DNA of 64,000 nucleotides, taken from contig JADGPR010000006.1 of the NCBI GenBank assembly GCA_017882335.1, forward strand, positions 5,419-69,418, given 5' to 3'. The notes beneath the pieces were generated by a model. The model had not been told where the DNA came from. It saw only the letters and a program-made list of their open reading frames with translations, and did not search any database. The position numbers were made by a program, and so were the translations under genes. The DNA comes from Bacteroidales bacterium (lineage in GTDB: Bacteria > Bacteroidota > Bacteroidia > Bacteroidales > FEN-979). How positions within the stretch are numbered: position 1 is the first letter of the stretch; each line of letters opens with the position of its first letter. Positions 41,485 through 64,000 of the stretch are shown one piece after another.

Positions 41485-41495
41485 GACTTTGAAGA

Positions 41496-42044: not shown

Positions 42045-42082
42045 GTTTTCAGTTTTATAGAGTTCGTCTTTGAATGACTGTT

Positions 42083-43336: not shown

Positions 43337-43353
43337 AATCTTTTTATTATGAG

Positions 43354-44817: not shown

Positions 44818-44820
44818 GAT

Positions 44821-44918: not shown

Positions 44919-44920
44919 AC

Positions 44921-47475: not shown

Positions 47476-47478
47476 TTA

Positions 47479-48838: not shown

Positions 48839-48875
48839 AGCAGGGGGAAAATTTGAAGGTGTAAATATATAGGAA

Positions 48876-48902
48876 TCCCCACGATTCCCCACCTTTCCCC
48901 AC
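48876..48902 (-). promoter_or_regulatory. putative MraZ operator: three direct GTGGGGA repeats at 10-bp spacing upstream of mraZ
   Basis: The minus strand reads GTGGGGAAAG GTGGGGAATC GTGGGGATTC. On the plus strand this is TCCCCAC at 48876-82, 48886-92 and 48896-902. The site lies 38-64 nt upstream of the mraZ ATG and is directly preceded by a near-consensus -7 box AATATTTG (plus strand 48903-48910). Confidence 0.65.
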
Positions 48903-49012: not shown

Positions 49013-51319
49013 TCAATGAATCACTACGATTTTGGTAGTGAATGGGTTGGCAGACTCGTGGGGAGAAAGAGGGGATACAATAAGAAAATAAATGCTTTCA
49101 GTGAGATTGGCTACAAAGAGAGAAATTGAATTGGAGGCAAGAAAAACTTTTTGAACTACAGATTGACCCAGGCTGTTGTAAAGTGTTACCTGAAAATACT
49201 CAGGATTGAAACGCTGAACGGATTGGATGAATACCTGCTGGTCGGCCGGGTTTGGATATACCACAAATTGCTTTGTTGATGCAGGTCCTTTTTCTTCGAT
49301 CGCTGTATAAACTACCGGGCTTGTTTTATGACTGAAATAATTCAATCCTCCTGAAAAATTTCCCACGATAAGGTCCATAAAATCCGGATCTTCCAGGTTC
49401 GCAACAGTGGCAGCCGTCCGGTAACCAAATGAAGAAGGTATTGGAGATCCGCAGAGAACGGTCAACAGGGAATCCGCTCGTGTAAATGTGCCATTCAGGT
49501 TCCCGTCAATATTCGTATAATAATGAACTTTCCCTTCCTCGCAACCAACGATCAGGCCGGTCTTTCCGGAAGGATCCTTGAAAAAGAATGGTGTGCTATA
49601 CCCGTCATAGGAGATCAATGGATTTGTTACGACTACTTTTCCCAGGCTATCGGTCACATGCGTAAAAACAGGCGAAACTAAAGTCCCGGTATTTTGATAA
49701 TACACAAGGGTTCCTTTCTGGTTCCCGATCGCAAGGTCCGGCAACCCGTCTTCGTCAAGGTCGAATAACTGAGGCGTACTGAAACTCCCGGCGTCGATCT
49801 TCTGATATTGAGTTTGTGCAGGAGCAAAAACCGGTTCATGACCGGAACCGGCAGTATTTTGAAAATAGGTCAGCGATCCGTCAGCATTCCCGATGATCAT
49901 GTCCAGGTCACCATCTCCATCCAGATCTGCAAAAGTCGGGTAAAATCCGAGACCATGAAGCCTGGAAAGGTCAGCAAAATCATCGGTTACAAGGTGAAAG
50001 GATGGATTGTTGGGTTGTCCGGTATTTTTATAATAGGAGATCTTCGATATAAATACAGACTTCAATGATCCCTGGAAATAATAAGAAGAATCATATTCAC
50101 CGTAATTGCCGATCAGAAGATCCGGTAAACCGTCTCTGTTAACATCTGTAACAACGGGATAAGCATTTGTACCTACATCGATCATTTCATTTTGAAAAAA
50201 ATGATCAGTCTGAAATTGAAATACCGGGTGATCATTGGTTCCGGTATTTTTATAGAACCAGCAGCTACGCTTGTTTTCAGAAACGTAGAAAGAGGGATCA
50301 AAAGGAGAAGCCACCAGGTCGCGGATGCCATCATTATCCATATCTAGGAAAGAACAGGCGGGAAAGGAAAATAGCCGAACAGGATAAGGATTCCCCGGGA
50401 ATGCGCTGTCCTGGCTGATCATATGCGCAGAATCAATCGTTCCTCCGTTAATCAGGGCGATCAGGTTAGGGAAATCGACATCACCTATGATCAGGTCATT
50501 CAACTCGTTGCCGTCAAGGTCAGCTGCCAGGAGGGTTGAACCGGTATGTTTTGGGGATAACCTATTGCATGATAAATCCGGTAATTCCGAATATTTGTAA
50601 GGACATTGAATGTTCAGGGTGATTTCGTTTCCTCCTTCACTTTCTTTGAAATCTCCCCAGCACTTATCAGAAAGCCTGTAATCAAGACTGTCGCAGTTTC
50701 CGTTTTTTTCCATCGACAGGTTTTTATGGTATTCAATATAAGAACCCAGCCCGAAAAAAGTGAGCAAGTCGAGGTCGCCGTCATGATCAATATCCGAGAT
50801 GGCAGGATAATCTACGGGAGTAAGCAGGATGCCCACTTTCCCGGTATAAAAATAGGAGGTCAACAGGTTGGTAATGAGTTCAAATTTGAGTGAGGTATCG
50901 CTGATGTTCTTGAAAACCCTGACTCCGCCAAGGGAATAAGTGAAAATGTCCTGTTTGCCATCGCAATTGTAATCTGCAAAGATAACCCAGTCATGAAGAT
51001 CAGGAAACAGGGAAGAAAGTTCGGGATGATAGGAATACTTGATTTCTCCTGTTGAGCCTTCATTTATAAATGGAAGGATCCGGTTTCCGAAGCGGTCAAA
51101 GATCACCAGATCGGGTTTCCCGTCAAGGTTGATATCGATCGCCCCGAACTGGCATGAATTCATACCTCCGGCCCATGGAAACTGCAGAGGAACTTCAGAG
51201 ATGTTTTGTGCGGTAATGGCAATAGAAAACCCGCAGATCAGTAACCAGGATAAAAAACAATATGCTGTATGTTGAGATTTGTAACTACTGGAATTTGTCT
51301 GTGATCCGGATCTGCCCAT
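49013..51319 (-). CDS. FG-GAP/VCBS-repeat protein with T9SS-type C-terminal sorting domain
   Basis: It has a signal peptide and many copies of D.DGDGK.D-type FG-GAP/VCBS motifs (DINLDGKPDL, DIDHDGDLDL, DLDGDGDLDM, DLDEDGLPDL). The C-terminus (VVYPNPADQQVFIQ...IYFLIV...TKIVVIH) is typical of T9SS CTDs. Confidence 0.8.
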   Translation of the reverse strand: MGRSGSQTNSSSYKSQHTAYCFLSWLLICGFSIAITAQNISEVPLQFPWAGGMNSCQFGAIDINLDGKPDLVIFDRFGNRILPFINEGSTGEIKYSYHPELSSLFPDLHDWVIFADYNCDGKQDIFTYSLGGVRVFKNISDTSLKFELITNLLTSYFYTGKVGILLTPVDYPAISDIDHDGDLDLLTFFGLGSYIEYHKNLSMEKNGNCDSLDYRLSDKCWGDFKESEGGNEITLNIQCPYKYSELPDLSCNRLSPKHTGSTLLAADLDGNELNDLIIGDVDFPNLIALINGGTIDSAHMISQDSAFPGNPYPVRLFSFPACSFLDMDNDGIRDLVASPFDPSFYVSENKRSCWFYKNTGTNDHPVFQFQTDHFFQNEMIDVGTNAYPVVTDVNRDGLPDLLIGNYGEYDSSYYFQGSLKSVFISKISYYKNTGQPNNPSFHLVTDDFADLSRLHGLGFYPTFADLDGDGDLDMIIGNADGSLTYFQNTAGSGHEPVFAPAQTQYQKIDAGSFSTPQLFDLDEDGLPDLAIGNQKGTLVYYQNTGTLVSPVFTHVTDSLGKVVVTNPLISYDGYSTPFFFKDPSGKTGLIVGCEEGKVHYYTNIDGNLNGTFTRADSLLTVLCGSPIPSSFGYRTAATVANLEDPDFMDLIVGNFSGGLNYFSHKTSPVVYTAIEEKGPASTKQFVVYPNPADQQVFIQSVQRFNPEYFQVTLYNSLGQSVVQKVFLASNSISLFVANLTESIYFLIVSPLSPHESANPFTTKIVVIH

Positions 51320-51371: not shown

Positions 51372-52532
51372 ATGTCAAGGATTTTAGTGATCGATGATGA
51401 AAAAAGTATCCGCAATACGTTACGTGAAATCTTGAAATATGAAAAGTATGAAGTAGATGATGCGGCGGATGGCCCGGATGGGTTGAAACTTCTGGAATCA
51501 AACAAATACAGTGCAATCCTCTGTGATATCAAAATGCCGAAAATGGATGGCATCGAAGTGTTAGAGAAAATTCTCCTGGTGACGGATACGCCGGTCATCA
51601 TGATCTCAGGGCATGGAACAATTGACACTGCTGTCGAAGCAATAAAGAAAGGGGCATTTGATTATATTTCCAAACCACTGGATTTAAACCGGCTCCTGAT
51701 TACGATCCGGAATGCAATGGATAAATCGATCCTGGTGGATGAGACAAAGATCCTGAAAAAGAAGATCAACGGGGTTCATGAAATGATCGGTGAGTCGGAA
51801 GAAATGCTTAAGGTTAAAGACCTCATTGCCAAAGTAGCTTCAACCGATGCCCGTGTTCTGATCACCGGCGAGAGTGGAACCGGAAAGGAACTTGTTGCGC
51901 GGTGGCTGCATGCACTGAGCAACCGTTCAGAAAATCCGTTCATTGAAGTGAATTGTGCCGCCATCCCTTCCGAGCTTATCGAGAGCAACCTTTTTGGGCA
52001 TGAAAAAGGCTCTTTTACTTCTGCCATCAAGCAACGGAAAGGAGATTTTGAGCTGGCCAATGGTGGTACCTTGTTCCTGGATGAGATCGGTGACATGAGT
52101 CTTTCGGCCCAGGCGAAGGTTCTACGGGCTTTGCAAGAAAACAAGATTACACGCGTTGGGGGAGAGAAGGAGATTCCGGTTGATGTCAGGGTGATTGCTG
52201 CAACAAACAAAAACATCAAGGAAGAACTGGAGAATAAAAATTTTCGTGAGGATCTCTACCACCGATTGAGTGTGATACTGATTGATGTGCCTCCCCTTTC
52301 TAAACGATTGGACGATATTCCCCTGTTGACAAAACAATTTATTTCCGAGATCTGTGAACACCAGGGAAAAGCCCCGCTGGAGGTTATGGAGGATGCCTTC
52401 GATGCTTTGAAAAAAATCAAATGGACCGGTAATATCCGTGAGTTGCGGAATGTTGTCGAAAGGTTGGTGATCCTGTGTGATGGAAGAATCACGGAGGAAG
52501 ATGTTAAAAAATATTCAATGCCGTTGTACTAG
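51372..52532 (+). CDS. response regulator with sigma54-interaction AAA+ domain, lacking a C-terminal DNA-binding domain
   Basis: A receiver domain (ILVIDDE..., CDIKMPKMDG), Walker A GESGTGKE, and a GAFTGA-equivalent loop that reads GSFTSA. The protein ends about 10 aa after the AAA+ lid (NIRELRNVVERLVIL..) with no Fis-type HTH. A TATCTTTG box lies 20 nt upstream. Confidence 0.8.
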   Translation: MSRILVIDDEKSIRNTLREILKYEKYEVDDAADGPDGLKLLESNKYSAILCDIKMPKMDGIEVLEKILLVTDTPVIMISGHGTIDTAVEAIKKGAFDYISKPLDLNRLLITIRNAMDKSILVDETKILKKKINGVHEMIGESEEMLKVKDLIAKVASTDARVLITGESGTGKELVARWLHALSNRSENPFIEVNCAAIPSELIESNLFGHEKGSFTSAIKQRKGDFELANGGTLFLDEIGDMSLSAQAKVLRALQENKITRVGGEKEIPVDVRVIAATNKNIKEELENKNFREDLYHRLSVILIDVPPLSKRLDDIPLLTKQFISEICEHQGKAPLEVMEDAFDALKKIKWTGNIRELRNVVERLVILCDGRITEEDVKKYSMPLY

Positions 52533-52595: not shown

Positions 52596-52856
52596 ATGAA
52601 ACTCCGAAAAAATGTTGCTGTCAGTGAAGCCGGATTGTTGTTTAACCCTGTAACCGGTGAATCCTACTCAGTGAACCCCATTGGTGTTGAGATTATCAAT
52701 CTCCTGCGGGAGGAGAAAAGCCCGGAGGACATCAGTAAATTCATATTGGGGAAATTTGCAACGGATAAAGCCACATTTGAGAAAGACTATCACGATTTCA
52801 TCGGTATCCTTGAACACCACAACCTCTTAGACAGCCATGAAGAAACGAAAGCTTAA
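52596..52856 (+). CDS. PqqD-family (RRE-like) small protein
   Basis: 86 aa. The pattern LLFNPVTGESYSVNPIGVEIINLL.E..SPEDI...L..F..D....E.DYHDFIGIL..HNLL matches the PqqD/peptide-chaperone fold signature. It overlaps the next gene by 20 nt. Confidence 0.6.
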   Translation: MKLRKNVAVSEAGLLFNPVTGESYSVNPIGVEIINLLREEKSPEDISKFILGKFATDKATFEKDYHDFIGILEHHNLLDSHEETKA

Positions 52857-53883
52857 AATTGCCGTCACTGGGTTGAATGCGATTGACAGTCCGGGTCCCG
52901 GGATTTCGGTAATCAGGGCCCTGAGGGAGGCGGCATCGTTTGATGTCAGGATCATAGGACTGTCATACGAATCGCTTGAGCCGGGCATTTACATGCACGA
53001 CCTGGTGGACCGTACATACTCGATTCCTTATCCTACGGCTGGAATCGACACCCTTCTGGCTCGCCTGGAATATATCCATGAAAAGGAGAAACTGGATGTG
53101 ATCATCCCCAACTTTGATGCGGAACTTTACCCGTTTATCAAACTGGAGACGAAACTCAAGGCCATGGGCATTCATATGTTTCTTCCAACCCTGCACCAGT
53201 TCGAGGAACGGCAGAAGGTAAACCTCAACGAATTCGGGAAGAAGTATAACATCAATGTCCCCAGGAGCAAAGTTATTCATGACCTCAGCATGGTATACAG
53301 TCTCCAGTCGGAATTTTCATTCCCGATGATCGTGAAAGGAAAATTTTACGATGCCTCTATTGCATACAGCATCGAACAGGTGAAAAGCTATTATAATAAA
53401 ATCAGCGCCAAATGGGGGCTTCCCATCATCATCCAGGAATTTATCCATGGTACGGAATTCAACGTAACCGGCCTGGGCGATGGTAAAGGCAATACCATTG
53501 CGGCTGTTCCGATGCGCAAGCAATACATCACTGAAAAAGGAAAGGCCTGGGGAGGCATTTCGATTTCTGACGAGGAAATGCTGGATATGACGCGCAAATT
53601 CCTGCGCACAACAAAATGGCGTGGTGGATTTGAACTTGAACTGATGAAAAATAAGGATGGCGAACTTTACATGTTGGAGATCAATCCGCGCCTGCCTGCA
53701 TGGATCTACCTTGCTGTCGGTGTCGGACAAAACATTCCCGAAGCATTGGTCAAGCTGGCCATGGGTGAAAAGGTAAAACCCTTTACAAAGTATACTGTGG
53801 GAAAGATGTTCGTGCGTTATTCATGGGATATGATTGTTGACAGGGAAGAGTTTGAGCAGATCTCAATCTATGGAGAACTATAA
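52837..53883 (+). CDS. ATP-grasp family ligase (carboxylate-amine ligase type), unassigned subfamily
   Basis: 348 aa. A pre-ATP-grasp region (KIAVTGLNAIDSPGPG..), a central block FPMIVKG......I...E, IIQEFI.G.EF.V, and the Mg/ATP loop LMLEINPRLPAW. Confidence 0.7.
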   Translation: MKKRKLKIAVTGLNAIDSPGPGISVIRALREAASFDVRIIGLSYESLEPGIYMHDLVDRTYSIPYPTAGIDTLLARLEYIHEKEKLDVIIPNFDAELYPFIKLETKLKAMGIHMFLPTLHQFEERQKVNLNEFGKKYNINVPRSKVIHDLSMVYSLQSEFSFPMIVKGKFYDASIAYSIEQVKSYYNKISAKWGLPIIIQEFIHGTEFNVTGLGDGKGNTIAAVPMRKQYITEKGKAWGGISISDEEMLDMTRKFLRTTKWRGGFELELMKNKDGELYMLEINPRLPAWIYLAVGVGQNIPEALVKLAMGEKVKPFTKYTVGKMFVRYSWDMIVDREEFEQISIYGEL

Positions 53884-53886
53884 TAA

Positions 53887-53924
53887 CTAGCGAAGCCTGC
53901 CTGCCGGTAGGCAGGTAGCGAAAA
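53887..53924. repeat. GC hairpin element (copy 4) flanked by 7-bp direct repeat TAGCGAA
   Basis: cTAGCGAAg-CCTGCCT-gccggt-AGGCAGG-TAGCGAAaa, starting 4 nt after the ATP-grasp stop codon. Confidence 0.8.
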
Positions 53925-53944
53925 TAAAAATACTTTATGACTCT

Positions 53945-53957
53945 GTGACTTTGTCAC
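53945..53957 (+). promoter_or_regulatory. perfect palindrome GTGAC-TTT-GTCAC upstream of the decarboxylase gene (candidate operator), overlapping a -7-like TGACTTTG
   Basis: The sequence ctctGTGACtttGTCACtttttt lies 22 nt upstream of the ATG at 53979. Confidence 0.35.
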
Positions 53958-53978
53958 TTTTTTAATAAAATATTATCT

Positions 53979-55334
53979 ATGAGTAAAACAAGATACGAAC
54001 GTCCGGTGATTAAGAAACTTGAAACCGGAATGCCGAATAAATTCGGGACGAGAACAGAATATGAACCGATGACGCACATCGATGGGGTAGCGGTAAAGGA
54101 CCTGATCAAAGAGTTTGGTTCGCCTCTGTTCGTCATTTCTGAGAAAACCATCCGCGATACGGTGAAAAAAGCCAAAAAAGCTTTTGGAACGCGCTATCCC
54201 AAGGTTCAGTTTGCCTGGTCGTACAAGACTAATTACCTGAATGCAATTTGCAATATTTTCCACCAGGAAGATTCCTGGGCAGAAGTGGTCTCGGGTTTTG
54301 AATACGACAAAGCCATTAACCTGGGAGTGGATGGCCGGAAGATCATCTTTAACGGTCCGGATAAAAGCGAACAGGATCTTACAAAGGCTATAACCAATGA
54401 TTCTCTGATCCACATCGACCACCTCGATGAATTATATTCTATCAGAGAATTAGCCGATAAACTGAAGAAGCGTCCGAGAGTGGCAATCAGGGTGAACATG
54501 GATACGGGTGTATATCCTATGTGGGACCGATTCGGTTTTAACTATGAAAACGGTCAGGCGTGGGATGCCATCAACAAGATCATGCATTCGGAAAAGATGG
54601 AACTGGTCGGACTTCATTGCCACATTGGTACTTTCATGCTTTCGCCATTTGCTTATGGCACTGCGGCATCTAAGCTGTCTGAACTGGCGCTTGCCGTTGA
54701 ACAGAAATTCAAACATGAAATAAAATACATCGACATGGGGGGCGGATTTGCTTCGAAGAATACATTGAAAGGTTCCTATCTTCCGGGAACCGATACCAAT
54801 CCCACCTTTGACGACTTCGCGGAAGCCATTTCCACAGTGCTTCTTAACAGTAATTTCAAAAAAGATAAATTGCCATTGCTCATCCTCGAAACCGGCCGCG
54901 CCCTTGTTGATGAGGCAGGTTATTTGCTTGGGTCAGTGATCTCAAACAAGCGTTCCAGTACCGGCCGCCGCAACACCATAATCGATGTCGGGGTAAATAT
55001 CCTCTTTACATCCTTCTGGTACGATCACAAAATCACCCCGGCACAGCCGTTCACCCATTATTCAGAAGATACCTGCCTATACGGACCGCTCTGCATGAAC
55101 ATCGATGTGATCCGCGAAAGCGCCAACCTGCCGTTGCTCAATATGGGAGACCATATAGTGATCCACAATGTGGGTGCATACAATATGACCCAGTGGATGC
55201 AGTTTATAACTTTGCGGCCCAACGTGGTGCTTATCGACCTGGATGAAAAACCGCATCTGATCCGGATTAAGGAATCACTGGAAAATATGAACAGCATGGA
55301 ACGGGTGCCTTCACATTTAACTTTTGACCGTTGA
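53979..55334 (+). CDS. PLP-dependent decarboxylase, Orn/DAP/Arg (alanine-racemase-fold, group IV) family
   Basis: The PLP lysine in FAWSYKTNY, then HCHIGT, DMGGGF, ETGRALV, and GPLCMNIDV (CxxxD-type), with NVGAYN at the C-terminus. Confidence 0.8.
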   Translation: MSKTRYERPVIKKLETGMPNKFGTRTEYEPMTHIDGVAVKDLIKEFGSPLFVISEKTIRDTVKKAKKAFGTRYPKVQFAWSYKTNYLNAICNIFHQEDSWAEVVSGFEYDKAINLGVDGRKIIFNGPDKSEQDLTKAITNDSLIHIDHLDELYSIRELADKLKKRPRVAIRVNMDTGVYPMWDRFGFNYENGQAWDAINKIMHSEKMELVGLHCHIGTFMLSPFAYGTAASKLSELALAVEQKFKHEIKYIDMGGGFASKNTLKGSYLPGTDTNPTFDDFAEAISTVLLNSNFKKDKLPLLILETGRALVDEAGYLLGSVISNKRSSTGRRNTIIDVGVNILFTSFWYDHKITPAQPFTHYSEDTCLYGPLCMNIDVIRESANLPLLNMGDHIVIHNVGAYNMTQWMQFITLRPNVVLIDLDEKPHLIRIKESLENMNSMERVPSHLTFDR

Positions 55335-57541
55335 GTTTTAAAAAAACAACATATCTCTTTCCCTCCTTCCTTTCCAGTGTAGTGAATAGCTATACACAGA
55401 TTTTCTTTTCGAACAGCAAGATTTTCGCATTGATCCTGATGGTGGTATCGTTTTTCGACTTCTGGGCAGGTTTGAGTGGATTTATTGCAATTGTTGTATC
55501 GAATGCAATGGCTTATCTCATCGGGTTCAACCGGATGAACATAAAGAATGGATATTACGGATTCAATAGCTTGCTGGTAGGATTGGCACTTGGAGTTTAC
55601 TATCAACCCGGACCGGAATTTTTCATTGTGCTCGCATTTTCTTCGATGCTTACCCTTTTTCTAACCTTGATGGTTGAGGGGGTAGTAGGAAAATACGGAT
55701 TGCCCTTCCTGAGCCTTTCGTTTTTACTTGCAACCTGGCTGGTAAGCCTTGCCACCCGGCAATTTACCGCATTGCATGTCAGTGAACGGGGTATTTTCAT
55801 GACCAATGAGATGTTTGCATTGGGTGGGAACCGGATGGTAGAATCTTACAACTGGCTGGCAAATTTGAGGATCTATGGATCTGTCCGGCTTTATTTCACT
55901 TCGCTGGGCGCCATTTTTTTTCAATATCATCTCTTTGCAGGGATTCTTGTTGCGATAGGGCTTCTCATCTATTCACGAATTGCATTTATCCTGTCCCTGG
56001 TAGGTTTCTTTTCAGCCTATGCCTATTATATCTTTATCGGGGCCGACATTCAGGAACTCACATCCAGCTTCATCGGCTTTAATTTTATCCTCACTTCGAT
56101 TGCCATTGGCGGGTTTTTCATCATCCCTTCACGATGGTCGTTTTTATGGGTGATCCTTCTTACACCCCTTATTTCAATCATTCTCACGAGCACCAATGTG
56201 ATATTTTCAATTTTCCAGCTATCGGTTTATTCATTGCCTTTCAACATTGTAGTGCTGATTTTTCTTTATTCCCTGAAGTTCCGTGAACGGTTTTATGATA
56301 AACCCCAATTGGTGGCTTACCAGCAATTTTCTCCTGAGAAAAACCTTTATTCACATGTGAACTACAAAACCCGTTTTGGTAAATCACTCATTTTCCCCTT
56401 TGTCTTACCTTTCTGGGGTGAATGGAAAGTGACCCAGGGCCATAATGGGAAGTTCACGCACCAAGGCGACTGGCGTCATGCGTGGGATTTTGAAGTGACA
56501 GATGAGGAGGGGCTTACCTATTCCGGAGATGGAAACAACTGTGAGAATTATTATGCCTACAACAAACCGGTAATTGCACCTGCAGATGGCCATGTGGAAG
56601 AGATTGTTGATGAAGTGGAGGAAAATGAAATCGGCAAGGTAGACCTGGAACATAATTGGGGAAACACCATTATCCTTCGCCATACAGACCAACTCTATTC
56701 AAAGTTGTCGCATCTGAAAAAAAAGAGCTTTAAAGTGGCAGTGGGAGATACTGTGAAGAAAGGACAGGTTCTTGCCAACTGCGGGAATTCTGGCCGTTCG
56801 CCGGTGCCACACGTTCATTTTCAAATCCAGGGAACACCCTATATTGGATCCAAAACGCTTGATTATCCCATCAACCATTATATTCTTCATAAAGCAGGAA
56901 TTTTCGAATTGAAATCTTACATTTCTCCTGAAAACAATGCACTGGTTTCGAATATCAGTAAAAATAGTTCTCTTGAAAAGGCATTTCATTTTATCCCGGG
57001 ACAAAAATTCAAGCTCAATGTAACCCAACCGGGGGAGAAGGATTACCAGGTAGATTGGGAGGTTCAGATTGACGCAGTGAACAATATGTTTATTTTTTGC
57101 GAAAAGAGCAAATCACGTGCTTATTTCCGTAACGATGACGATATTCATTACTTCACCAATTTTGAGGGGAACAAGTCATCGCTTCTCTTTAAATTTTTCC
57201 TGGGTGCCTACAAAATCATGCTGGGTTATTACAACAACCTGCTGGTAAAAGACCAGTTCCCGGTAAACATGTTTAATAACTGGATAGTTAACCTGGGGCA
57301 GGATTTTATTGCGCCATTCTGGATTTTTTCACATTCGGAATACAGTCTCAAATACCTGGGCATGGATGATGCACTGATGCAGACCAAATTCCGTTTACGG
57401 TCGATGGTATGTGCAAAGGTCGGGAACCGTGAAATAAAAAAAATGGAGTGTGAATTGTTTATAGGTCCTCACGGACTCGAACTGTTTGTCATCAACGAAA
57501 ATGAAAAAATAACAACAGTTAACCTGGTGAGTGGCCGATGA
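55331..57541 (+). CDS. fusion protein: urea-transporter (UT)-like 10-TM domain + M23 metallopeptidase domain + uncharacterised C-terminal domain
   Basis: The N-terminal ~320 aa have UT-family hallmarks (VVNSYTQIFFSNS..., GYYGFNSLLVGLALG, a second half with FIGFNFILTSIAIGG). The M23 core spans aa ~350-505 (HQGDWRHAWDFEV ... NCGNSGRSPVPHVHFQI). About 230 aa of unassigned sequence follow. The TTG start overlaps the upstream stop (GTTGA). Confidence 0.7.
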   Translation: MSFKKTTYLFPSFLSSVVNSYTQIFFSNSKIFALILMVVSFFDFWAGLSGFIAIVVSNAMAYLIGFNRMNIKNGYYGFNSLLVGLALGVYYQPGPEFFIVLAFSSMLTLFLTLMVEGVVGKYGLPFLSLSFLLATWLVSLATRQFTALHVSERGIFMTNEMFALGGNRMVESYNWLANLRIYGSVRLYFTSLGAIFFQYHLFAGILVAIGLLIYSRIAFILSLVGFFSAYAYYIFIGADIQELTSSFIGFNFILTSIAIGGFFIIPSRWSFLWVILLTPLISIILTSTNVIFSIFQLSVYSLPFNIVVLIFLYSLKFRERFYDKPQLVAYQQFSPEKNLYSHVNYKTRFGKSLIFPFVLPFWGEWKVTQGHNGKFTHQGDWRHAWDFEVTDEEGLTYSGDGNNCENYYAYNKPVIAPADGHVEEIVDEVEENEIGKVDLEHNWGNTIILRHTDQLYSKLSHLKKKSFKVAVGDTVKKGQVLANCGNSGRSPVPHVHFQIQGTPYIGSKTLDYPINHYILHKAGIFELKSYISPENNALVSNISKNSSLEKAFHFIPGQKFKLNVTQPGEKDYQVDWEVQIDAVNNMFIFCEKSKSRAYFRNDDDIHYFTNFEGNKSSLLFKFFLGAYKIMLGYYNNLLVKDQFPVNMFNNWIVNLGQDFIAPFWIFSHSEYSLKYLGMDDALMQTKFRLRSMVCAKVGNREIKKMECELFIGPHGLELFVINENEKITTVNLVSGR

Positions 57542-59031
57542 AAAGCTGTTTTGTTCTTTTTTTGGTTTTTTTTCTATTGTTGATTTTATCGTCAAAGGCA
57601 GGAACAAAACTCGATTTCAAAACAGTAGATATGCTTACATACCGTTTTTTTGAAGAAAAGAAATGGGACAGCGTGATAGTGGTCGGCAAGCAAGCCTTGC
57701 ACCAGGATATCGATTATTACTACCTGCGGGTAAGGCTGGGCATTGCTTACTTTGAAAAGCAGGAATACATTCCGGCAACAGTGCATCTGAGGAAAGCAAG
57801 ACAGTTTAATTCAGGAGATCCGATGGTTTCAGATTATCTATACCGGGCATATGTTTATACGAACCGGAATGAAGAGGCGCATATCCTTAAGGAAACCTTC
57901 CCTGTGGAGGACAGGGAAACAACCGGTTCAAAAAGCGGTTTTTTGGAACTGGTGCATTTTGAAAGCGGTTATACACTCAGCAGTGACAATGCCCCGAAAA
58001 ATCTTTCCACGCTCATGGGTCACGATAGCATTTATGGAGAACAGGATCTTTATGGCAATAACTTTTATACTGATCTCAATGTTAAGGTGAAGATTTCAAA
58101 CCGGGTAAGTATTTCGATGACGTATAACTACCTCAATTTCACTAAGACGAAATACATTCAATTTGGCAAAAGGGAGGATAATTTGAATAGTATAACCGAT
58201 ACCATCTTTGGTAAAAATTATAATTATACATTTCCCTGGGTTATTTATGATACCAGTTTCAGGTACCATATCAGTCAGAACGAAGTACATATTGGCGCAA
58301 CAATAACCCTTCCGGATGGATTTAAGATCATGCCGGCCATCCATTGGGTACATGTCAGCTACCCCATGATCAACTCAAGATTCCATATGGATTCCATCCA
58401 GGATACGGCATTTTATACTAGCATTGACAATGTATATCATACATTCCCTTTTGCACGTGCAAGTTATTCATATGAACAGAAAGATACCGCGTTCAACAAT
58501 TGGGTGGCTTCACTCACGATAACCAAAGATCTTGGCATTTTCAATATTGGTCTATCCGGAAGCTGGTCGAACCTGAATAACAAAAAACAGATCCAGGCTG
58601 GGCTTATACTGACCTATTACCCGCTTGGGAACCTCAATTTTTACGGAACCAACACCGTCACCGGATTTTTCCAGGGGAAAGATACTAGGCTGCTGTTAAG
58701 CCAGGTTATAGGGGCAAAAGTCGCACCCTGGTTATGGCTCGAAGGAAACTTTTATTACGGGGATTATACCAATGGCAACATTTTCAATAGTTCAATCATA
58801 TATAACAACAGCGACATCATTGATTACCGTGCTGGCGTCAACCTGGTCTTTGTTATAAATAAACACATTCAACTGTCACTCATTTACCAGTATTTCCGTA
58901 AGGAAAACCAGCAATTGTACTACGTTAAAACCATTAATCCAGACACACACCTTCCCATTGAAACACTAAAAACAGAGAATAATCCATATAACACTAATAC
59001 TTTAATAGGAGGAATCACATGGAAACTGTAA
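57538..59031 (+). CDS. outer-membrane protein: N-terminal TPR-like segment + beta-barrel
   Basis: Signal peptide (FVLFLVFFLLLILSSKA). About 110 aa of TPR-like helices (..DYYYLRVRLGIAYFEKQEYIPA..) precede ~380 aa of alternating beta-strand sequence ending ..GGITWKL. ATGA overlap with the upstream gene. Confidence 0.55.
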   Translation: MKSCFVLFLVFFLLLILSSKAGTKLDFKTVDMLTYRFFEEKKWDSVIVVGKQALHQDIDYYYLRVRLGIAYFEKQEYIPATVHLRKARQFNSGDPMVSDYLYRAYVYTNRNEEAHILKETFPVEDRETTGSKSGFLELVHFESGYTLSSDNAPKNLSTLMGHDSIYGEQDLYGNNFYTDLNVKVKISNRVSISMTYNYLNFTKTKYIQFGKREDNLNSITDTIFGKNYNYTFPWVIYDTSFRYHISQNEVHIGATITLPDGFKIMPAIHWVHVSYPMINSRFHMDSIQDTAFYTSIDNVYHTFPFARASYSYEQKDTAFNNWVASLTITKDLGIFNIGLSGSWSNLNNKKQIQAGLILTYYPLGNLNFYGTNTVTGFFQGKDTRLLLSQVIGAKVAPWLWLEGNFYYGDYTNGNIFNSSIIYNNSDIIDYRAGVNLVFVINKHIQLSLIYQYFRKENQQLYYVKTINPDTHLPIETLKTENNPYNTNTLIGGITWKL

Positions 59032-59681
59032 TAATTAAAAATTACGAATTACGAATTACGAAGGTTTCGCTACTTCGCTATTTCGCTACTTCACTATTTC
59101 TCTTCATCACCCTCGGCCTCTTCTCCCAAAACTATACAGTGATGCATGAGGCATTCGGAAAAAGTTATGAGTTTGAATCGAAGGGAAATTATTCGGAAGC
59201 AATTTCCGTTTTAAAGAAGGTATACCAGGAAGATTCATACGAAATCAACCTGCGCCTGGGATGGGTGACCTACCTTGCTGGTCAGTTTACCGAATCGTCG
59301 GCTTATTATCAGGAAACTATGAAGCTGAAACCCTATTCCATTGAGGCAAAATTCGGGTTTGTCTATCCGGCTTCCGCCTTGGGAAACTGGGACCAGGTCA
59401 TAACCCAGTACAATGAAATTCTGGCAATTGACCCGCAGAATACACTTGCCAATTATCGCATGGGATCAATTTATTACGGGAGAAAGGATTATGCAAAAGC
59501 GGAAAAATACCTGGAAAAGGTGGTAAACCTCTATCCGTTTGATTATGATAGCCTGGTTCTCTATGCCTGGACAAACCTAAAACTGGGGAAAATGCGGGAA
59601 GCGCAGGTGCTCTTCAACAAAGTGCTGCTGAACAGGCCAAAGGATTCCTCTGCGCTTGAAGGGCTTTCTCTTATTAAATAA
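59019..59681 (+). CDS. tetratricopeptide-repeat protein (start uncertain: 59019 or 59142)
   Basis: TPR units (..GNYSEAISVLKKVY.., ..FTESSAYYQETMKLKP.., ..NWDQVITQYNEILAIDPQN.., ..DYAKAEKYLEKVVNLYP..). The first ~30 codons, including the putative signal peptide, are encoded by simple tandem repeats. Confidence 0.65.
   Translation: METVIIKNYELRITKVSLLRYFATSLFLFITLGLFSQNYTVMHEAFGKSYEFESKGNYSEAISVLKKVYQEDSYEINLRLGWVTYLAGQFTESSAYYQETMKLKPYSIEAKFGFVYPASALGNWDQVITQYNEILAIDPQNTLANYRMGSIYYGRKDYAKAEKYLEKVVNLYPFDYDSLVLYAWTNLKLGKMREAQVLFNKVLLNRPKDSSALEGLSLIK
59040..59105. repeat. (AATTACG)3 followed by five TTCGCTAC-type octamers
   Basis: aattacg aattacg aattacg aaggt ttcgctac ttcgctat ttcgctac ttcactat ttctcttc. 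It overlaps the annotated 5' end of the TPR gene. Confidence 0.85.
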
Positions 59682-59717: not shown

Positions 59718-62700
59718 CTAATCCTTTAAGCATCGGACACTGAATGCATTCGCCCTGCTTGCAGGATAAAGCGCTACACTGGGATCATAATCATTCATCA
59801 CATGCGCCCAGGATTTGGTGGAAGTATATGCCGTTGAAGACCAAAAGAAGGTGGCGAAACCGTCATAGCTCCAGGAGATGTTGAACAACCTGGTACCTGC
59901 TAATAATGCATTGTACCCGGAATATCCGGAATATTTCAAAGGGCTTCCTGCAAAGCCATTGTTTGTCCAGTTGACAAATAATATATTCCAGTCATTTTCT
60001 GTCGGCACATGCCATCCCGGGGGGCACAATCCCTGGTTCGACACAGAAAAATCGTACTGCATCAATTCATCCCATTGATAGAACACGGATCCGGTGGTGC
60101 AGCGCACAGGGATATCGTTGTAACAGTACTTTTCAACTATGCAATTGTCCCTTTGAGTTGATGATCCTGCTATCTGTGACCCATAGTTCAGGTTGGCAGC
60201 CATCCAGCACTGGGTGCCGATCTGAACGGTAGGATAAACCTTGTTGTCCCTGATATCGGTGATCGGGCTTCCACAATTGACAATTGAAAATGGATAATTG
60301 ATAATATTGGCATGGGCAAGGGTGCTGCAGAGTGCTGCATTGGTGTAGGTATACGTGATTGAGTGTGTGCCTATGCCTGCGAGTGATGGGGTAAAAACGC
60401 CGGTTAAGGAATTGACTCCTGGTCCCGAGTAGGTTCCCCCCAATGGAATTCCACCTTTGAGCATAAAGGGTTTGGCATTGATGGTTGTAACCGTATCAAA
60501 ACAAGGGTTAAAAGTAACAATAGGATTACTGTTAACCGACATGGTGATTGCATTGCTGGTGGCAGGATTACCACTGGTACAGGTGAGGTTGGAAGTCAGC
60601 AAACAGGAGATCAAATCGTTATTTGATGGATTATAAGTGTATGCCGGGTTATTGGTACCAACATTGATCCCGTTGACTTTCCATTGATAGGATGGAGAGC
60701 TGCCACCATTTGCAGGTATTGCAGTGAAAGTAACTGCGATACCCGCACAAACCGGGTTATCCGATGCAGCAAGTGAAACACTGACCGGCAGGTTGGGATT
60801 GACAATCATCTGAAGCTGGATGCTGGATGCTGGATTGCTGGATGTACAAGATTCTGACGAAGTAAGTACACAGGATACCAGGTCCCCGTTTGCCGGAATA
60901 TAGGTGAAGTTTGGAATATTGGTTCCGACATTTATTGAGTTAACCTGCCATTGGTATGCAGGCAATATTCCTCCGTTTACAGGATTTGCAGTGAATGAAA
61001 CAGAAGTTCCGGAACAAACCGGATTTGCATCAGCAGATATGGAAATGGTGACAGGCAGATTGGGGTTAATTGTCATTACCACTATATTGCTTGTTGCCGG
61101 GTTACCGGAAGTACAAGTCAGGTCAGAAGTCAGAACACAGGAAACCGCGTCATTATTGGATGGCGCGTACGTGAATGCAGGTGAATCTGGGCCGATATTG
61201 ATACCATTCACTTTCCACTGGCAGGTTGGTAAAGCCCCTCCATTGACCGGTGCTGCTGTAAATGTCACTGGTGTGCCGGCACAAACGGGATTGGCTGATT
61301 CTGCAACTGAAACACTGACCGGCAAATTAGGATTGACGGTCATTATCACGGTTGTGCTTGTGGCAGGATTCCCTGTTGTACATGATAAGTCAGAAGAGAT
61401 CATACAGGAAACAGCATCATTATTGGATGGTGTGTATGTAAACAATGGTGAATTTGATCCTTGATTAACTCCATTGACTTTCCATTGGTAAGTTGGTAGA
61501 GTCCCTCCGTTAACAGGTGTCGCAGTAATTGTAATAGGAGAGCCGGCACATACCGGGTTTGCATCGGGTGAAATTGTCACACTAACCGGCAGATTTACAT
61601 TGACCGTCATGTTGACCTGGTTGGAGGTTGCGGGATTATTGGCGATGCAAAGCGTTTCGGAAGAATTAAGTATACAGATGACTTGATCATTTTCGGCCGG
61701 AGTGAAAGTATATATGGGGTTGTTTGTGCCGACATTGATGCCATTTACCTGCCATTGGTAAGTTGGAGAGGTTCCTTCATTTTGTGGGGTCGCCGTAAAT
61801 GTAACAGTTGATCCTGAACAGACCGGATTGGCCGAAGGAGATATCGATATATTGACAATATTAACCGGGTTAACAATCATTATAATGGCATTGGATAATG
61901 CTGGATTATTGGAGATGCATGTGATATTGGATGAAGTTAAAACACAAGCGACAATATCTCCGTTCAGCGGAACATAGGTATAAACAGGAAAATCGGAACC
62001 GGCATTGAGTCCATTCACCTTCCATTGGTAAGAAGGATTTATCCCGCCATTGGTCGGTGTGGCTGTGAAAGTTACCATAGTTCCTACGCAAATGTTATTG
62101 GAAGAAGAAACAATGGATATATTTACAGTACTAATTGGAATTACCGTTACAATATATGCTACTGTATTTCCAACACAACTCCCCAATACTGGCGTAATAA
62201 AATAGGTTACAGTTTCATTGACTGTATTTGAATTTGTGAGCACCTGGTTGATCGTATTTCCTATACCAGATGAATAACCGGCAACAAAGCCTGAGGAACC
62301 GGTAGCTGTCCACGAAAATGTTGTAATTGGAACATTTGAAGTTAAAATAATATTTGTTGAATTGCCTGAACAGATCGATTTTGCCAGGGGGAAATTCGTG
62401 ACAACTGGAGTTGTAATGGTTAACAACTGGACTGTATCCATAACCTGGCACCCGCTTGTATTTGTGACAGTAACCTTATATATACCAACCAGACCCGTTG
62501 TGAAAGTCTGTGATGTTCCAACTGTTAAACCGGAACCGAGGTCTATCCACAGATAAGTGCAACCCGCACATGCGCCCGCATCGAAGATAACGGTTTGTCC
62601 CTGGCAAACGGTTGTATCCGGTCCAAGGTTTACGGGTGTAACTGAATATAACGACACGTTCACCTCATCGTTTGCTGTGCAGCCGGTTTTTGTAACGGTT

Positions 62701-64000
62701 ACGGAGTAGGTCCCGGCGACTGATACGATGATCGTTCTGATAGTTGCCCCGGTCGACCAGAGGTAGGTTGTATATCCTGCGCCGGCATCAAGAGTGGTAT
62801 AGGTTCCCGGGCAGATGCTCCTGTCGGGTCCCAGATTTACAATAGGCACAGCTCCGATAATGATGGTCTTGCAAAGACTCACTTGGTCTGGCAGCCCCTC
62901 GTTAACTAATAATCTTACATTATAGGTTCCGGGCTGGTTATATGAGAATGGTGGTGGGTTGAACAAAGTGGAAGACGGAACCGATGCATTGGCGCAAGGG
63001 GGGAAAGTCAAACGGGTAAGTGTATTCGATCCCCTGTTAGTTATATAAGCAAAAAGAGTATCATTTTGACGGAAGATCTCAGAAAAGCTGTGAGGCAGAT
63101 TGAGATTACCAATGTTCCCTAAAACCTGACCTGTGACAGTACCTGTAACCCCTCCTGTAAAAATCAATTTGCCCAGTTGCCCGTTCGTAAGATATTTTGT
63201 AAAGTAGCCGCTTGTTAAATCACAATCACGAACTATTGAGAGTCCCCCTCCAGACAAAACACCACCGGGGTTACCTAAATTTTCTCCGGTTGGAACATTC
63301 AGAAGTGAATTACCAAATGTCAACCGGGATATACTAGCGTTGCCATTTATCATTAACGCATACCATAATAGGTTTTCCTTAACAATACATAAAGGACCTG
63401 GATTGATCAAAACTCCTAAATCTCCAAAGTCTGTTATTGTTGGGATGTTAGTTAAGCTGTTTCCAAAATTGAATCTGACAAATTTATCTCCCGTAGAACA
63501 GTTTGCAAATGCCATCCATGTTGTACCTTCTTTCATTACAACCAATCCATGTAACATAATTAACCCGCTAAATGGACCCAGATCAATGGCTGTTGGAGTA
63601 TTCGCTAAAGAAACGCCAAAATCCAACCTGACCAATGTAGTGTTGTTACAAACAAATCCATACCAGTTTCCATTATCCTTTTTTACTTGAATCCCTTCAA
63701 TGGAAGTACCAAGTATACCACTAAAAGTTCCGAAATTAGTCCAGCTTATCGGATTATGATTAAATGTCGTCCCATGGTAATATCGGATTATTCCAGCCTG
63801 TTGACAACTTATAAAGGAATAACAATTGTTTCCATCCTGAACAAGTGTCATATATGTTGGAACACTAAGCAAACCTCCTGCATTTCCAATATTTACCCCT
63901 GTTGGATCATTGGTTGTATTTCCGGAACAAAAATTCCAATAAAAAGTTGATCCTCCGGTTGTCAGGTTTGTAATAGTTATCTGAGCGCCGATACAGCTGG
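59718..64000 (-). CDS. giant surface protein (5'-truncated by window): beta-propeller-like repeats, PKD/PKD-like domains, six tandem ~89-aa Ig-like repeats, C-terminal Fibrobacter-succinogenes-major-paralogous (FISUMP) domain
   Basis: The reading frame stays open upstream of the track start to the window end. The C-terminal ~185 aa match the FISUMP pattern (DIRDNKVYPTVQIGTQCWMAANLN...CPPGWHVPT..DW..L...AGG.LK......FFWSST......AW......V......AFSVRCLKD). The middle holds 6 repeats with NPVC.G..VTFTA.P.NGG..P.YQW.VNG. Confidence 0.8.
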   Translation of the reverse strand, partial: SCIGAQITITNLTTGGSTFYWNFCSGNTTNDPTGVNIGNAGGLLSVPTYMTLVQDGNNCYSFISCQQAGIIRYYHGTTFNHNPISWTNFGTFSGILGTSIEGIQVKKDNGNWYGFVCNNTTLVRLDFGVSLANTPTAIDLGPFSGLIMLHGLVVMKEGTTWMAFANCSTGDKFVRFNFGNSLTNIPTITDFGDLGVLINPGPLCIVKENLLWYALMINGNASISRLTFGNSLLNVPTGENLGNPGGVLSGGGLSIVRDCDLTSGYFTKYLTNGQLGKLIFTGGVTGTVTGQVLGNIGNLNLPHSFSEIFRQNDTLFAYITNRGSNTLTRLTFPPCANASVPSSTLFNPPPFSYNQPGTYNVRLLVNEGLPDQVSLCKTIIIGAVPIVNLGPDRSICPGTYTTLDAGAGYTTYLWSTGATIRTIIVSVAGTYSVTVTKTGCTANDEVNVSLYSVTPVNLGPDTTVCQGQTVIFDAGACAGCTYLWIDLGSGLTVGTSQTFTTGLVGIYKVTVTNTSGCQVMDTVQLLTITTPVVTNFPLAKSICSGNSTNIILTSNVPITTFSWTATGSSGFVAGYSSGIGNTINQVLTNSNTVNETVTYFITPVLGSCVGNTVAYIVTVIPISTVNISIVSSSNNICVGTMVTFTATPTNGGINPSYQWKVNGLNAGSDFPVYTYVPLNGDIVACVLTSSNITCISNNPALSNAIIMIVNPVNIVNISISPSANPVCSGSTVTFTATPQNEGTSPTYQWQVNGINVGTNNPIYTFTPAENDQVICILNSSETLCIANNPATSNQVNMTVNVNLPVSVTISPDANPVCAGSPITITATPVNGGTLPTYQWKVNGVNQGSNSPLFTYTPSNNDAVSCMISSDLSCTTGNPATSTTVIMTVNPNLPVSVSVAESANPVCAGTPVTFTAAPVNGGALPTCQWKVNGINIGPDSPAFTYAPSNNDAVSCVLTSDLTCTSGNPATSNIVVMTINPNLPVTISISADANPVCSGTSVSFTANPVNGGILPAYQWQVNSINVGTNIPNFTYIPANGDLVSCVLTSSESCTSSNPASSIQLQMIVNPNLPVSVSLAASDNPVCAGIAVTFTAIPANGGSSPSYQWKVNGINVGTNNPAYTYNPSNNDLISCLLTSNLTCTSGNPATSNAITMSVNSNPIVTFNPCFDTVTTINAKPFMLKGGIPLGGTYSGPGVNSLTGVFTPSLAGIGTHSITYTYTNAALCSTLAHANIINYPFSIVNCGSPITDIRDNKVYPTVQIGTQCWMAANLNYGSQIAGSSTQRDNCIVEKYCYNDIPVRCTTGSVFYQWDELMQYDFSVSNQGLCPPGWHVPTENDWNILFVNWTNNGFAGSPLKYSGYSGYNALLAGTRLFNISWSYDGFATFFWSSTAYTSTKSWAHVMNDYDPSVALYPASRANAFSVRCLKD
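60528..62126 (-). repeat. six tandem ~267-bp coding repeats (Ig-like modules) inside the giant surface-protein gene
   Basis: By eye the protein repeats are 87-90 aa each. Conserved blocks are NLPVSV.., ANPVCAG..VTFTA.PVNGG.LP.YQWKVNGIN.G.., FTY.PSNNDAVSC.L.S.L.C.SGNPATSN...M.VNP. Confidence 0.85.

Follow-up and report, generated by a model that had tools for sequence, protein, structure and literature searches.

To our knowledge, in every characterised case of an ATP-grasp ligase working with a clade-2 decarboxylase, an amide- or ester-linked amino-acid conjugate is made and then decarboxylated. The BtrJ/BtrK pair works in this way, and so do the non-ribosomal-peptide-synthetase-independent siderophore (NIS) synthetases with FigC, SbnH or PvsE. 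The alanine-racemase-fold clade that includes FigC was reported to act on conjugated substrates in specialised metabolism (PMC7857480). Here we compared such systems with six adjoining genes of a Bacteroidales bacterium, located in a 64,000-nt stretch of contig JADGPR010000006.1 (assembly GCA_017882335.1), which we call the window. These genes encoded a PqqD-like protein, an ATP-grasp ligase, a pyridoxal phosphate (PLP) decarboxylase, a urea-transporter-type (UT) channel fused to an M23 peptidase, an outer-membrane protein (OMP) and a small tetratricopeptide-repeat (TPR) protein. We propose that they were the Bacteroidota form ("type A") of a widespread envelope-spanning system that makes and exports an amide-linked amine product, and we put the probability of this reading at about 0.4. 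The core of the system would consist of the PqqD-like protein, one to three ATP-grasp domains, a decarboxylase of the FigC/SbnH/BtrK/MccE clade and a UT channel with a fused cytoplasmic enzyme that cleaves amides. It would be completed by a membrane-anchored periplasmic TPR protein, usually accompanied by an outer-membrane beta-barrel. The evidence supported a set spanning the cytoplasm, the inner membrane, the periplasm and the outer membrane.

The butirosin proteins BtrI, BtrJ and BtrK were similar to this set in that an ATP-grasp ligase was encoded together with a decarboxylase that had the fold and clade of ours and acted on a tethered or conjugated amino acid, and the small partner was of nearly the same size (87 aa for BtrI, 86 aa here). 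However, the partner in the window had the PqqD fold of a RiPP recognition element (RRE; RiPP, ribosomally synthesised and post-translationally modified peptide) rather than that of an acyl carrier, and had no conserved attachment residue. In addition, the butirosin pathway lacked the UT channel, M23, TPR and barrel components, and the decarboxylase studied here was nearer to FigC than to BtrK. Among the NIS siderophore systems (FslA/FslC, that is FigA/FigC, for rhizoferrin; SbnH; PvsA/PvsE for vibrioferrin), FigC was the nearest relative of this decarboxylase. The two shared the ligate-then-decarboxylate logic, a Thr in the specificity helix and a Cys-Met loop. In contrast, there was no IucA/IucC-type synthetase among the conserved genes, the citrate-binding residues were replaced, and the exporter was a UT fusion instead of a major-facilitator (MFS) pump. 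Microcin C possessed the same kinds of part, namely a decarboxylase::GNAT protein (MccE), a peptidase (MccF), an exporter (MccC) and a peptide clamp (MccB), and the likeness was strongest for the versions introduced below as type B. Since our loci had no MccB-type adenylating enzyme, precursor gene or SAM-dependent transferase and used an ATP-grasp ligase, the analogy was limited to the parts.

No curated NCBIfam model reached its cut-off for any of the six proteins, and no paper combining these parts was found in the searchable literature. Thus, the view of the initial annotation that no characterised pathway had this gene set was borne out. Only the UT::M23 architecture had been listed, in a 2026 survey that gave neither gene context nor function (PMC12998343). 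The public names of the proteins were generic or misleading ("PqqD family protein", "carbamoyl-phosphate synthase large subunit", "diaminopimelate decarboxylase", "urea transporter", "hypothetical protein"). The second and third of these were almost certainly wrong and would distort metabolic reconstructions. The set as a whole would belong to a known kind, the ligase/decarboxylase metabolite cassettes with a dedicated exporter; its UT::hydrolase, TPR and barrel half had no described counterpart.

In the proposed route, the ATP-grasp ligase, docked or targeted by the PqqD-like protein, would join a carboxylate and an amino acid through an amide bond in the cytoplasm, leaving the alpha-amino and alpha-carboxyl groups of the amino acid free in the conjugate. 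The decarboxylase would strip this alpha-carboxyl group to give an N-acyl (or peptidyl) amine, and cleavage or deprotection of the conjugate would fall to the hydrolase, located where the UT channel opens to the cytoplasm. A small polar product would then leave through the UT pore and pass the periplasm and the outer membrane with the aid of the TPR protein and the barrel. In this scheme we infer the topology, the substrates, the order of decarboxylation and cleavage, and the direction of transport.

A conserved six-gene unit with counterparts in other phyla

The set was compact, with six genes in 7 kb, and had the following features.

52596-52856, + strand: PqqD-like gene, 86 aa
52837-53883, + strand: ATP-grasp gene, 348 aa
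53896-53915, in the spacer: G+C hairpin, REP-like, 9 bp
53945-53957, in the spacer: GTGAC-TTT-GTCAC palindrome followed by T6, terminator-like
53979-55334, + strand: decarboxylase gene, 451 aa
55331-57541, + strand: UT-M23 fusion gene, 736 aa, TTG start
55331-56272, + strand: N-terminal tail and UT inner-membrane channel domain of the fusion (UT match at residues 15-314)
56393-56845, + strand: M23 zinc metallopeptidase domain (PF01551, 61.1 bits)
56846-57541, + strand: C-terminal domain of about 230 aa, mostly beta (AlphaFold2 and Foldseek)
57538-59031, + strand: OMP gene, 497 aa
59019-59681, + strand: small TPR gene, 220 aa

The PqqD-like and ATP-grasp genes overlapped by 20 nt, the decarboxylase and UT-M23 genes by the 4-nt TTGA inside GTTGA, the UT-M23 and OMP genes by ATGA, and the OMP and TPR genes by 13 nt. 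The sole gap within the set was the 95-nt spacer (53884-53978) between the ATP-grasp and decarboxylase genes. The six open reading frames (ORFs), their overlaps, the spacer with its two hairpins and the sigma54 regulator gene upstream were all located as the initial annotation had described them, and profile searches upheld its PqqD, ATP-grasp, Orn/DAP-fold decarboxylase, UT, M23 and TPR domain calls.

We searched one genome per GTDB species with a UT-M23 alignment. At least 587 genomes had a full-length relative, some of them labelled Draconibacterium and Prolixibacteraceae, and our genome-locus counts rest on 80 species-level loci retrieved from these genomes. The six genes were present in the same order and on the same strand in 53 of the 80 loci, far more than chance would give, so that the set outlined from a single sequence did stay together across species. 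Of the 60 loci whose DNA reached far enough upstream, 53 had the first three genes, and all 66 loci that reached far enough downstream had both the OMP and the TPR gene. When all ORFs of these loci were clustered, only the six genes were conserved across lineages. They were a real, conserved and co-inherited unit. Gene coupling and co-inheritance were observed directly, as were the domain identities, the conserved catalytic residues and the gene fusions described below.

The 20-nt hairpin of the spacer (CCTGCCTGCCGGTAGGCAGG, 53896-53915) was repeated at 16297-16316 with one mismatch, where no copy was expected by chance. With two copies in the window, it looked like a dispersed REP-like intergenic repeat. 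The RNA fold of the spacer had a z-score of -3.5. Its longest ORF was M-T-L-stop, it had no Rfam match, and no riboswitch or other known RNA element was found in this region of the window or in nine diverse loci. A scan for sigma70-type promoters gave about the background level (24 found against 18.1 expected in shuffled sequences). The Bacteroidetes -7 motif TAnnTTTG also occurred at chance frequency, with one copy at 51345 before the regulator gene and none before the PqqD-like gene.

That the system extends well beyond Bacteroidota was seen in the genomic contexts of ATP-grasp homologues (L081, L085, L086 and L090/L091; see also below) and in a metagenome scan seeded solely on the decarboxylase alignment. 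The scan gave at least 577 contigs, and 80 loci were retrieved and domain-mapped. Type A, with a UT::M23 protein with or without the C-terminal domain, accounted for 45 of them. Another 13 loci, called type B, combined a UT::SIR2 protein (with or without a GNAT domain) with two to three ATP-grasp domains and a large, secreted TPR protein. In 57 of 64 cases the decarboxylase gene was followed by one for a UT/M23/SIR2 protein, and TPR proteins were present with all distant versions. Both types were located on contigs of 30-73% G+C. The sources of the UT::SIR2 proteins were annotated as Rokubacteria/Methylomirabilota, Anaerolineae (Chloroflexota), Nitrospinota, Planctomycetota and Betaproteobacteria metagenome-assembled genomes.

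One type B locus was L086, with a TPR lipoprotein, PqqD, a tandem ATP-grasp, the decarboxylase and UT::SIR2 (13544-15217), next to a divergent sigma54 two-component pair. Locus L085 had a TPR protein, a PqqD::ATP-grasp fusion, a degenerate ATP-grasp, the decarboxylase and UT::SIR2::GNAT (7233-9344). Sirtuins were also borne by the type B loci L101, L102, L105, L107, L109, L110 and L115, and genes for NAD synthase (NadE) and a GNAT protein directly followed the UT::SIR2-type gene at L134. Loci L090/L091 consisted of an ECF sigma factor, PqqD, ATP-grasp, the decarboxylase and UT. At L116 (6400-7593), a Shedu (SduA_C) defence gene and a MORN-repeat gene were found between the ATP-grasp and decarboxylase genes.

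Several components were fused to one another. ATP-grasp and decarboxylase formed one protein at L081 (P0280, 10001-12616), and PqqD and ATP-grasp formed one at L085 (P0349, 3550-4983). The surroundings of L081 included a 1918-aa TPR protein, a TonB_C protein, an 879-aa HEAT-repeat protein and a 637-aa protein without a confident domain, and no UT gene was seen in this neighbourhood. At L128 (1906-4749) and L137 (9396-12239), 947-aa proteins joined UT, M23 and the C-terminal domain to a TPR domain through a transmembrane helix (residues 739-758), thus connecting the channel with its TPR partner on the other side of the membrane. These fusions support a physical coupling of the components. Since the enzymes were translationally coupled and also fused in various pairs, it was probable that they formed one complex.

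M23 DD-endopeptidases and sirtuins both cut amides on the side-chain amine of DAP (diaminopimelate)- or Lys-type residues, and this shared chemistry may be the rationale for their swap at the cytoplasmic end of the channel. The SIR2 domains of type B matched the classical deacetylase family with a zinc ribbon. SIR2 domains are also common defence effectors, and together with the Shedu gene inside the L116 cluster this could suggest anti-phage or inter-bacterial conflict, where the sirtuin (as an NADase) or the M23 domain would be the effector and the UT domain a membrane effector. We found this the least credible explanation considered: neither the six proteins nor two UT::SIR2 proteins had a PADLOC-DB match, and the stable synteny, high conservation, housekeeping flanks and deacetylase-type SIR2 all spoke against it.

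The PqqD-like protein, the ligase and the decarboxylase

The PqqD-like protein matched PF05402 with 38.7 bits (cut-off 23.4, E 1.3e-9). Lasso-peptide and ScmD chaperone models also matched it, but weakly and far below their cut-offs. Its core KNxAxSExGxxFNPxxGESxSxNPIG was kept in 44 homologues. A PF05402 match above the cut-off is the PqqD mark of an RRE-dependent RiPP cluster, and a second mark is a precursor-peptide gene within or close to it. No conserved small ORF was found in the spacer, the flanks (the gap 5' of the PqqD-like gene was 63 nt), the 80 genome loci or the 80 metagenome loci. A precursor gene may yet lie elsewhere.

It was on this assumption that a RiPP-type maturation could be considered, with the PqqD-like RRE binding a distant precursor, the ATP-grasp ligase and the decarboxylase modifying it, and the M23 domain removing the leader at handover to the membrane component. 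The above-cut-off PqqD match, the weak matches to lasso-peptide and ScmD chaperones and the translational coupling or fusion of PqqD to ATP-grasp agree with it, and so does the fusion of a peptidase with an intact active site to a membrane protein, as in peptidase-containing ABC transporters (PCATs). M23 enzymes favour Gly-Gly-type bonds. The likeness to PCATs was one of functional logic only, a cytoplasmic hydrolase fused to a transport protein and coupling processing to export. In contrast to them, the UT channel is passive and has no ATPase, the hydrolase was M23 or a sirtuin instead of C39, and the cargo would be no peptide of the usual size. Indeed, a peptide would by far exceed the width of the UT pore. 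Furthermore, the PLP decarboxylase requires a free alpha-amino acid, which a peptide supplies only through a residue attached by its side chain, and in type B a sirtuin stood in for the peptidase. Finally, neither the window nor the 80 genome loci had a conserved small ORF within or next to the cluster, and the housekeeping-like conservation of the set (60-92% identity for ATP-grasp) was atypical of RiPP clusters. We consider RiPP maturation unlikely.

The small partner had the PqqD fold, not the acyl carrier fold, and the Ser for phosphopantetheine attachment was not found. A LysW-like carrier role was considered because a near-invariant (H/N/D)-Glu near the C-terminus resembled an attachment site, and it was rejected because this Glu was explained by the overlapping ATP-grasp start, ATG-AAx, in another frame. 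There was no acceptor or attachment residue common to the PqqD proteins of types A and B.

These observations also bear on the idea of a reversible modification, in which the ATP-grasp ligase and the decarboxylase would write a decarboxylated amino-acid adduct on a protein or peptide presented by PqqD and the M23 domain or sirtuin would erase it, regulating the channel or the TPR partner. A sirtuin and a GNAT protein make a classical eraser and writer, ATP-grasps of the RimK and LysX type modify proteins, and PqqD binds peptide segments, for which the N-terminal extension of the decarboxylase (see below) could serve. On the other hand, neither a target protein nor an acceptor residue conserved in PqqD across both types was identified, and the C-terminal Glu had the trivial explanation given above. 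We allow this idea a slim chance.

The ATP-grasp protein matched ATPgrasp_Ter with 46 bits (cut-off 29.1). It resembled the PRK12767 "CPSase-like" models far below their cut-offs, and its placement in a characterised family was rejected, as the likeness to CPSase, PurD, ACC and Ddl was only generic and the NCBIfam models were far below their cut-offs. Its identity was 60-92% across 62 genome loci, with a median of 76%. An exhaustive HMMER search found 238 cluster representatives at E<=1e-30, among which were tandem ATP-grasps of about 715 aa and the fusions P0280 and P0349. A distant paralogue with 32% identity was present at L092/L093 (10001-13037), paired only with a TPR protein of about 640 aa and without PqqD, the decarboxylase or UT; its context was Bacteroidota-like, with T9SS-tailed proteins.

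The decarboxylase was PLP-dependent, had the alanine-racemase fold and belonged to the FigC/FslC-BtrK-MccE clade, not to LysA, as judged from its sequence. It gave two Pfam matches to the Orn/DAP decarboxylase fold (100.5 and 50.7 bits). Its nearest structure was FigC (7KH2, E 1.6e-59), followed by DAP decarboxylases (about 1e-40) and BtrK (1e-20). Among the NCBIfam models, it scored 243 bits against FslC (NF041039, cut-off 500) and 217.9 bits against lysA (TIGR01048, cut-off 297.9). We mapped the active site on HMMER alignments with determinants taken from PMC7857480. The PLP lysine was K83, and T344, W347 and Y348 were also mapped. The Arg that binds the DAP carboxylate in DAP decarboxylase (R343) aligned with T344, as in FigC, and the Asp beside the catalytic Cys was replaced by Met (C372-M373), again as in FigC. 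However, the citrate-contacting residues of FigC, H357, R387 and N389, corresponded to I375, Q405 and M407.

Because of these substitutions at the DAP- and citrate-binding positions, the protein was neither of the DAP nor of the citryl-amino-acid type. The DAP decarboxylase identity was rejected on the score below the lysA cut-off and the missing DAP-binding Arg and Asp. The citryl-amino-acid decarboxylase identity was rejected on the neutral residues in place of the FigC citrate-binding set and the missed FslC cut-off. The substrate would instead be a conjugated amino acid whose appended group was neutral or hydrophobic. The key positions did not vary among 60 Bacteroidales sequences, and five distant sequences had the same residues or conservative replacements (Ile/Val at I375, Gln/Asn at Q405), which makes it likely that the same type of substrate was used across phyla. 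The enzymes were the best conserved components of the set, and the median identity of the decarboxylase in the genome loci was 78%.

The decarboxylase also had an N-terminal extension of about 30 residues with the consensus YERPxIxK...NKFG (residues 1-35, 53979-54080), to which neither FigC nor LysA aligned and which distant homologues retained. This extension may serve as a peptide ligand of the PqqD-like protein.

The channel fusion and the outer parts of the set

The UT domain of the fusion matched PF03253 with 195.5 bits (E 1.5e-57), covering profile positions 2-290 of 292. Like the urea transporters Yut and dvUT, it had the complete UT fold and both pore-signature Asn motifs, Asn79 being present in 39 and Asn251 in all 40 of 40 type A proteins. 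Unlike them, it scored 118 bits against the equivalog TIGR03441, below the cut-off of 274.6, and there were no urease genes in the cluster or its conserved neighbourhoods. Many database entries begin the protein at an internal ATG (700 aa) and so omit the region 55331-55438. The residues before this ATG (F10, F13, S20-S27, F32, L36) were invariant in a 15-sequence alignment and the UT match started at residue 15; thus, the TTG start was the better call.

The M23 domain was predicted to be catalytically competent and cytoplasmic. Its residues H377, D386, H461, H494 and H496 were invariant in 40 diverged type A homologues. No hydrophobic helix was present beyond residue 317 of the fusion, and the next residues, KFRERFYDK, were positively charged. 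In UT-B and dvUT the N- and C-termini lie in the cytoplasm, and an extracellular loop joins the two halves. Since the termini of the UT fold are on the cytoplasmic side and no transmembrane helix was added, the M23 and C-terminal domains should be in the cytoplasm, where they would be unlikely to edit the sacculus directly. Two other observations agree with this placement. In type B the position of M23 was occupied by a sirtuin or GNAT, which need NAD and acetyl-CoA, and at L128 and L137 a transmembrane helix separated the C-terminal domain from the TPR domain, with free TPR partners bearing signal or lipoprotein sequences. The periplasmic M23 endopeptidases MepM, ShyA, NlpD and LytM shared the intact zinc and catalytic residues, but an extracytoplasmic location like theirs was not predicted here, and all peptidoglycan-hydrolase NCBIfam models were far below their cut-offs for this domain.

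An AlphaFold2 model of the C-terminal domain (pLDDT 78.5, pTM 0.78, from a 14-sequence alignment) gave Foldseek matches with E from 7e-5 to 1e-2, the best being 3buu (E 7e-5). LolA entries were among them with probabilities of 0.9-1.0 but TM-scores of only 0.25-0.36, so that the resemblance to LolA-superfamily half-barrels was weak.

The OMP itself had no Pfam match, and the initial call of a TPR/barrel protein was confirmed through its homologues and a structural model. TPR motifs were found in 23 of 31 homologues and OMP_b-brl in 4 of 31. The AlphaFold2 model (pLDDT 78.6) had a signal peptide, helical repeats at 27-128 and a beta-barrel at 138-496. The top Foldseek matches were FadL, TodX and OmpG (E 1e-10 to 1e-7), and BcsC was at rank 13 with a TM-score of 0.29. 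Thus, the best fold matches were 14-strand barrels for small solutes, and the TPR region was only about 100 aa long. The barrel was the least conserved component, with a median identity of 34% in the genome loci, and many type A loci had instead of the 497-aa TPR-barrel a barrel-like protein of about 290 aa with a signal peptide. Barrels this small fit a small solute. The small TPR protein (TPR_19, E 8.6e-21, plus other TPR matches) had a hydrophobic anchor or signal sequence at its N-terminus, as read from the sequence, and is the predicted periplasmic partner.

The combination of a TPR-barrel OMP with a separate periplasmic TPR protein resembled the exporters PgaA, BcsC and AlgK/AlgE of synthase-dependent polysaccharide systems, and the initial annotation had noted this likeness. 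BcsC was among the Foldseek matches, and there were weak TPR matches to PgaA, BcsC and PrsT, in line with secretion of a polyamide or another polymer. However, the PgaA and BcsC models were far below their cut-offs for the OMP, and the conserved set had no glycosyltransferase, polymer synthase or ABC/Wzx-type exporter. The barrel was most like 14-strand, small-solute barrels, its TPR region of about 100 aa was missing in many lineages, and the inner-membrane partner was a narrow-pore UT channel. In view of the missing synthase, the small barrel and the narrow pore, polymer export was highly improbable.

The proposed route, its genomic surroundings and its meaning

The initial annotation had suggested an envelope-spanning module for an amine, a peptide or a polymer. 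The conserved unit, the FigC/BtrK-type decarboxylase and the span across both membranes agree with that suggestion, and its polymer part became unlikely. A number of points weigh against our own proposal of a system that makes and exports an amide-linked amine. The PqqD fold usually implies a peptide, yet the loci examined had no conserved small ORF. A hydrolase that merely reversed the ligation would make the pathway futile, and it is not obvious why a small solute should always require a periplasmic TPR protein. Flow through UT channels can go both ways, and export is the direction that we propose. The weak LolA-like resemblance of the C-terminal domain, if real, hints at a hydrophobic ligand. 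Moreover, 7 of the 60 genome loci with enough upstream DNA had the UT-M23, OMP and TPR genes without the three enzyme genes nearby; in the enzyme-less loci that we inspected, housekeeping genes were upstream of UT-M23.

A more specific version of the proposal would be a new class of trans-envelope conduit for small molecules, present in many bacterial phyla, with a UT-fold exporter whose cytoplasmic "gate-keeper" hydrolase releases the amine only at export. In this case, the hydrolase would free the decarboxylated amine made by the ATP-grasp ligase from a peptide or acyl carrier, and the TPR adaptor and the small barrel would complete the route. We regard this as a tentative and rather doubtful extension.

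The following features lay around the set in the window.

37772-48892, - strand: complete dcw cluster (mraZ, rsmH, ftsI-type penicillin-binding protein (PBP), DAP-type murE, mraY, ftsW, murG, murC)
49013-51319, - strand: 768-aa secreted-looking protein with repeated DxDGDGxxD-like motifs, no NCBIfam match
51372-52532, + strand: sigma54-dependent response regulator, 386 aa, 63 nt upstream of the PqqD-like gene
59718-63872, - strand: 1384-aa protein with many tandem modules of about 80 aa and a C-terminal FISUMP domain (TIGR02145, 107 bits)

The sigma54 regulator was indeed directly upstream of the set, as had been noted, but it was not part of what was conserved. It comprised a receiver, an AAA+ domain and a lid (Sigma54_activat 240.9 bits, Response_reg 108.6 bits). 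No helix-turn-helix (HTH) was found in it, as there was no HTH_8 and the protein ended after the AAA+ lid. Its best NCBIfam matches, NtrX and NtrC, were below their cut-offs. Such a regulator was adjacent only in the closest relatives of the window (L001, L019, L022), and sigma54 regulators with an HTH flanked the distant versions L086, L106, L138 and L108. It was possible that the regulator of the window was lineage-specific. In 23 genome loci (for example L003, 6579-7178, and the very divergent L078), an AraC-type regulator was directly upstream of PqqD. It had an N-terminal HMA-like, Cys-rich domain with an M(T/V)CxCC motif, which may point to metal or redox control.

Sigma54 control of the nitrogen type would fit an uptake and assimilation function, in which a small neutral amide or urea-like nitrogen compound would enter through the barrel and the UT channel and be cut by the hydrolase on entry, and the ligase and decarboxylase would convert the product. 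UT proteins are passive bidirectional channels used for urea uptake, NtrC/NtrX-like sigma54 regulators adjoined several versions, and a TonB_C protein was found in the L081 neighbourhood. However, the regulators varied by lineage (AraC-HMA, ECF sigma, sigma54) and the set had no conserved urease, amidase or catabolic genes. In addition, an ATP-grasp with a FigC-clade decarboxylase was a biosynthetic pairing in every characterised case (PMC7857480). Uptake was thus an improbable function.

Some genome loci had an additional gene between those for the decarboxylase and UT-M23. At L033, L039, L043, L045, L052 and L059 it encoded a member of the IF-2B family (PF01008, E 8e-23), to which MtnA- and R15P-type sugar-phosphate isomerases are related, and at four others (L054, L067, L073, L075) a DUF302 protein.

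The initial annotation had also placed the set right next to the dcw cluster and offered peptidoglycan editing as an alternative. The dcw cluster was real, but two genes, encoding the 768-aa protein and the regulator, separated it from the set. In this alternative, the decarboxylase, a Ddl-like ligase and the M23 peptidase would edit muropeptides in stem-peptide or envelope remodelling. It drew on the nearby dcw genes in this lineage, on the position of the set directly after PBP2-RodA in about 19 other lineages, on the usual role of M23 enzymes as peptidoglycan hydrolases and on the DAP-type MurE of the host. PBP2-RodA genes and an AraC regulator preceded the set in about 20 related lineages. 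This adjacency to peptidoglycan genes, once taken as a clue, turned out to be specific to related Bacteroidales, and no PBP or SEDS genes were near the cluster in the 80 diverse metagenome loci. The cytoplasmic position predicted for M23, its replacement by a sirtuin in the sister systems and a decarboxylase below the lysA cut-off without the DAP-binding Arg and Asp weakened the alternative further, and we consider it very unlikely. In order of falling confidence, the alternatives to our proposal were RiPP maturation, uptake, reversible modification, peptidoglycan editing, polymer export and defence.

The finding was broader than one Bacteroidota operon, as it concerned a cross-phylum system. 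If an amide-linked amine is made and exported as we propose, then a pathway to a small amine or amide metabolite would have gone unnoticed in hundreds of species, as our scans gave at least 587 GTDB species and no fewer than 577 metagenome contigs. The UT fold would serve for more than urea, and M23 peptidases and sirtuins could also act in the cytoplasm, coupled to a channel. Should the gate-keeper model of export also be true, the system would deserve the name of a new class, and its product would be a hitherto unrecognised, widely made metabolite.

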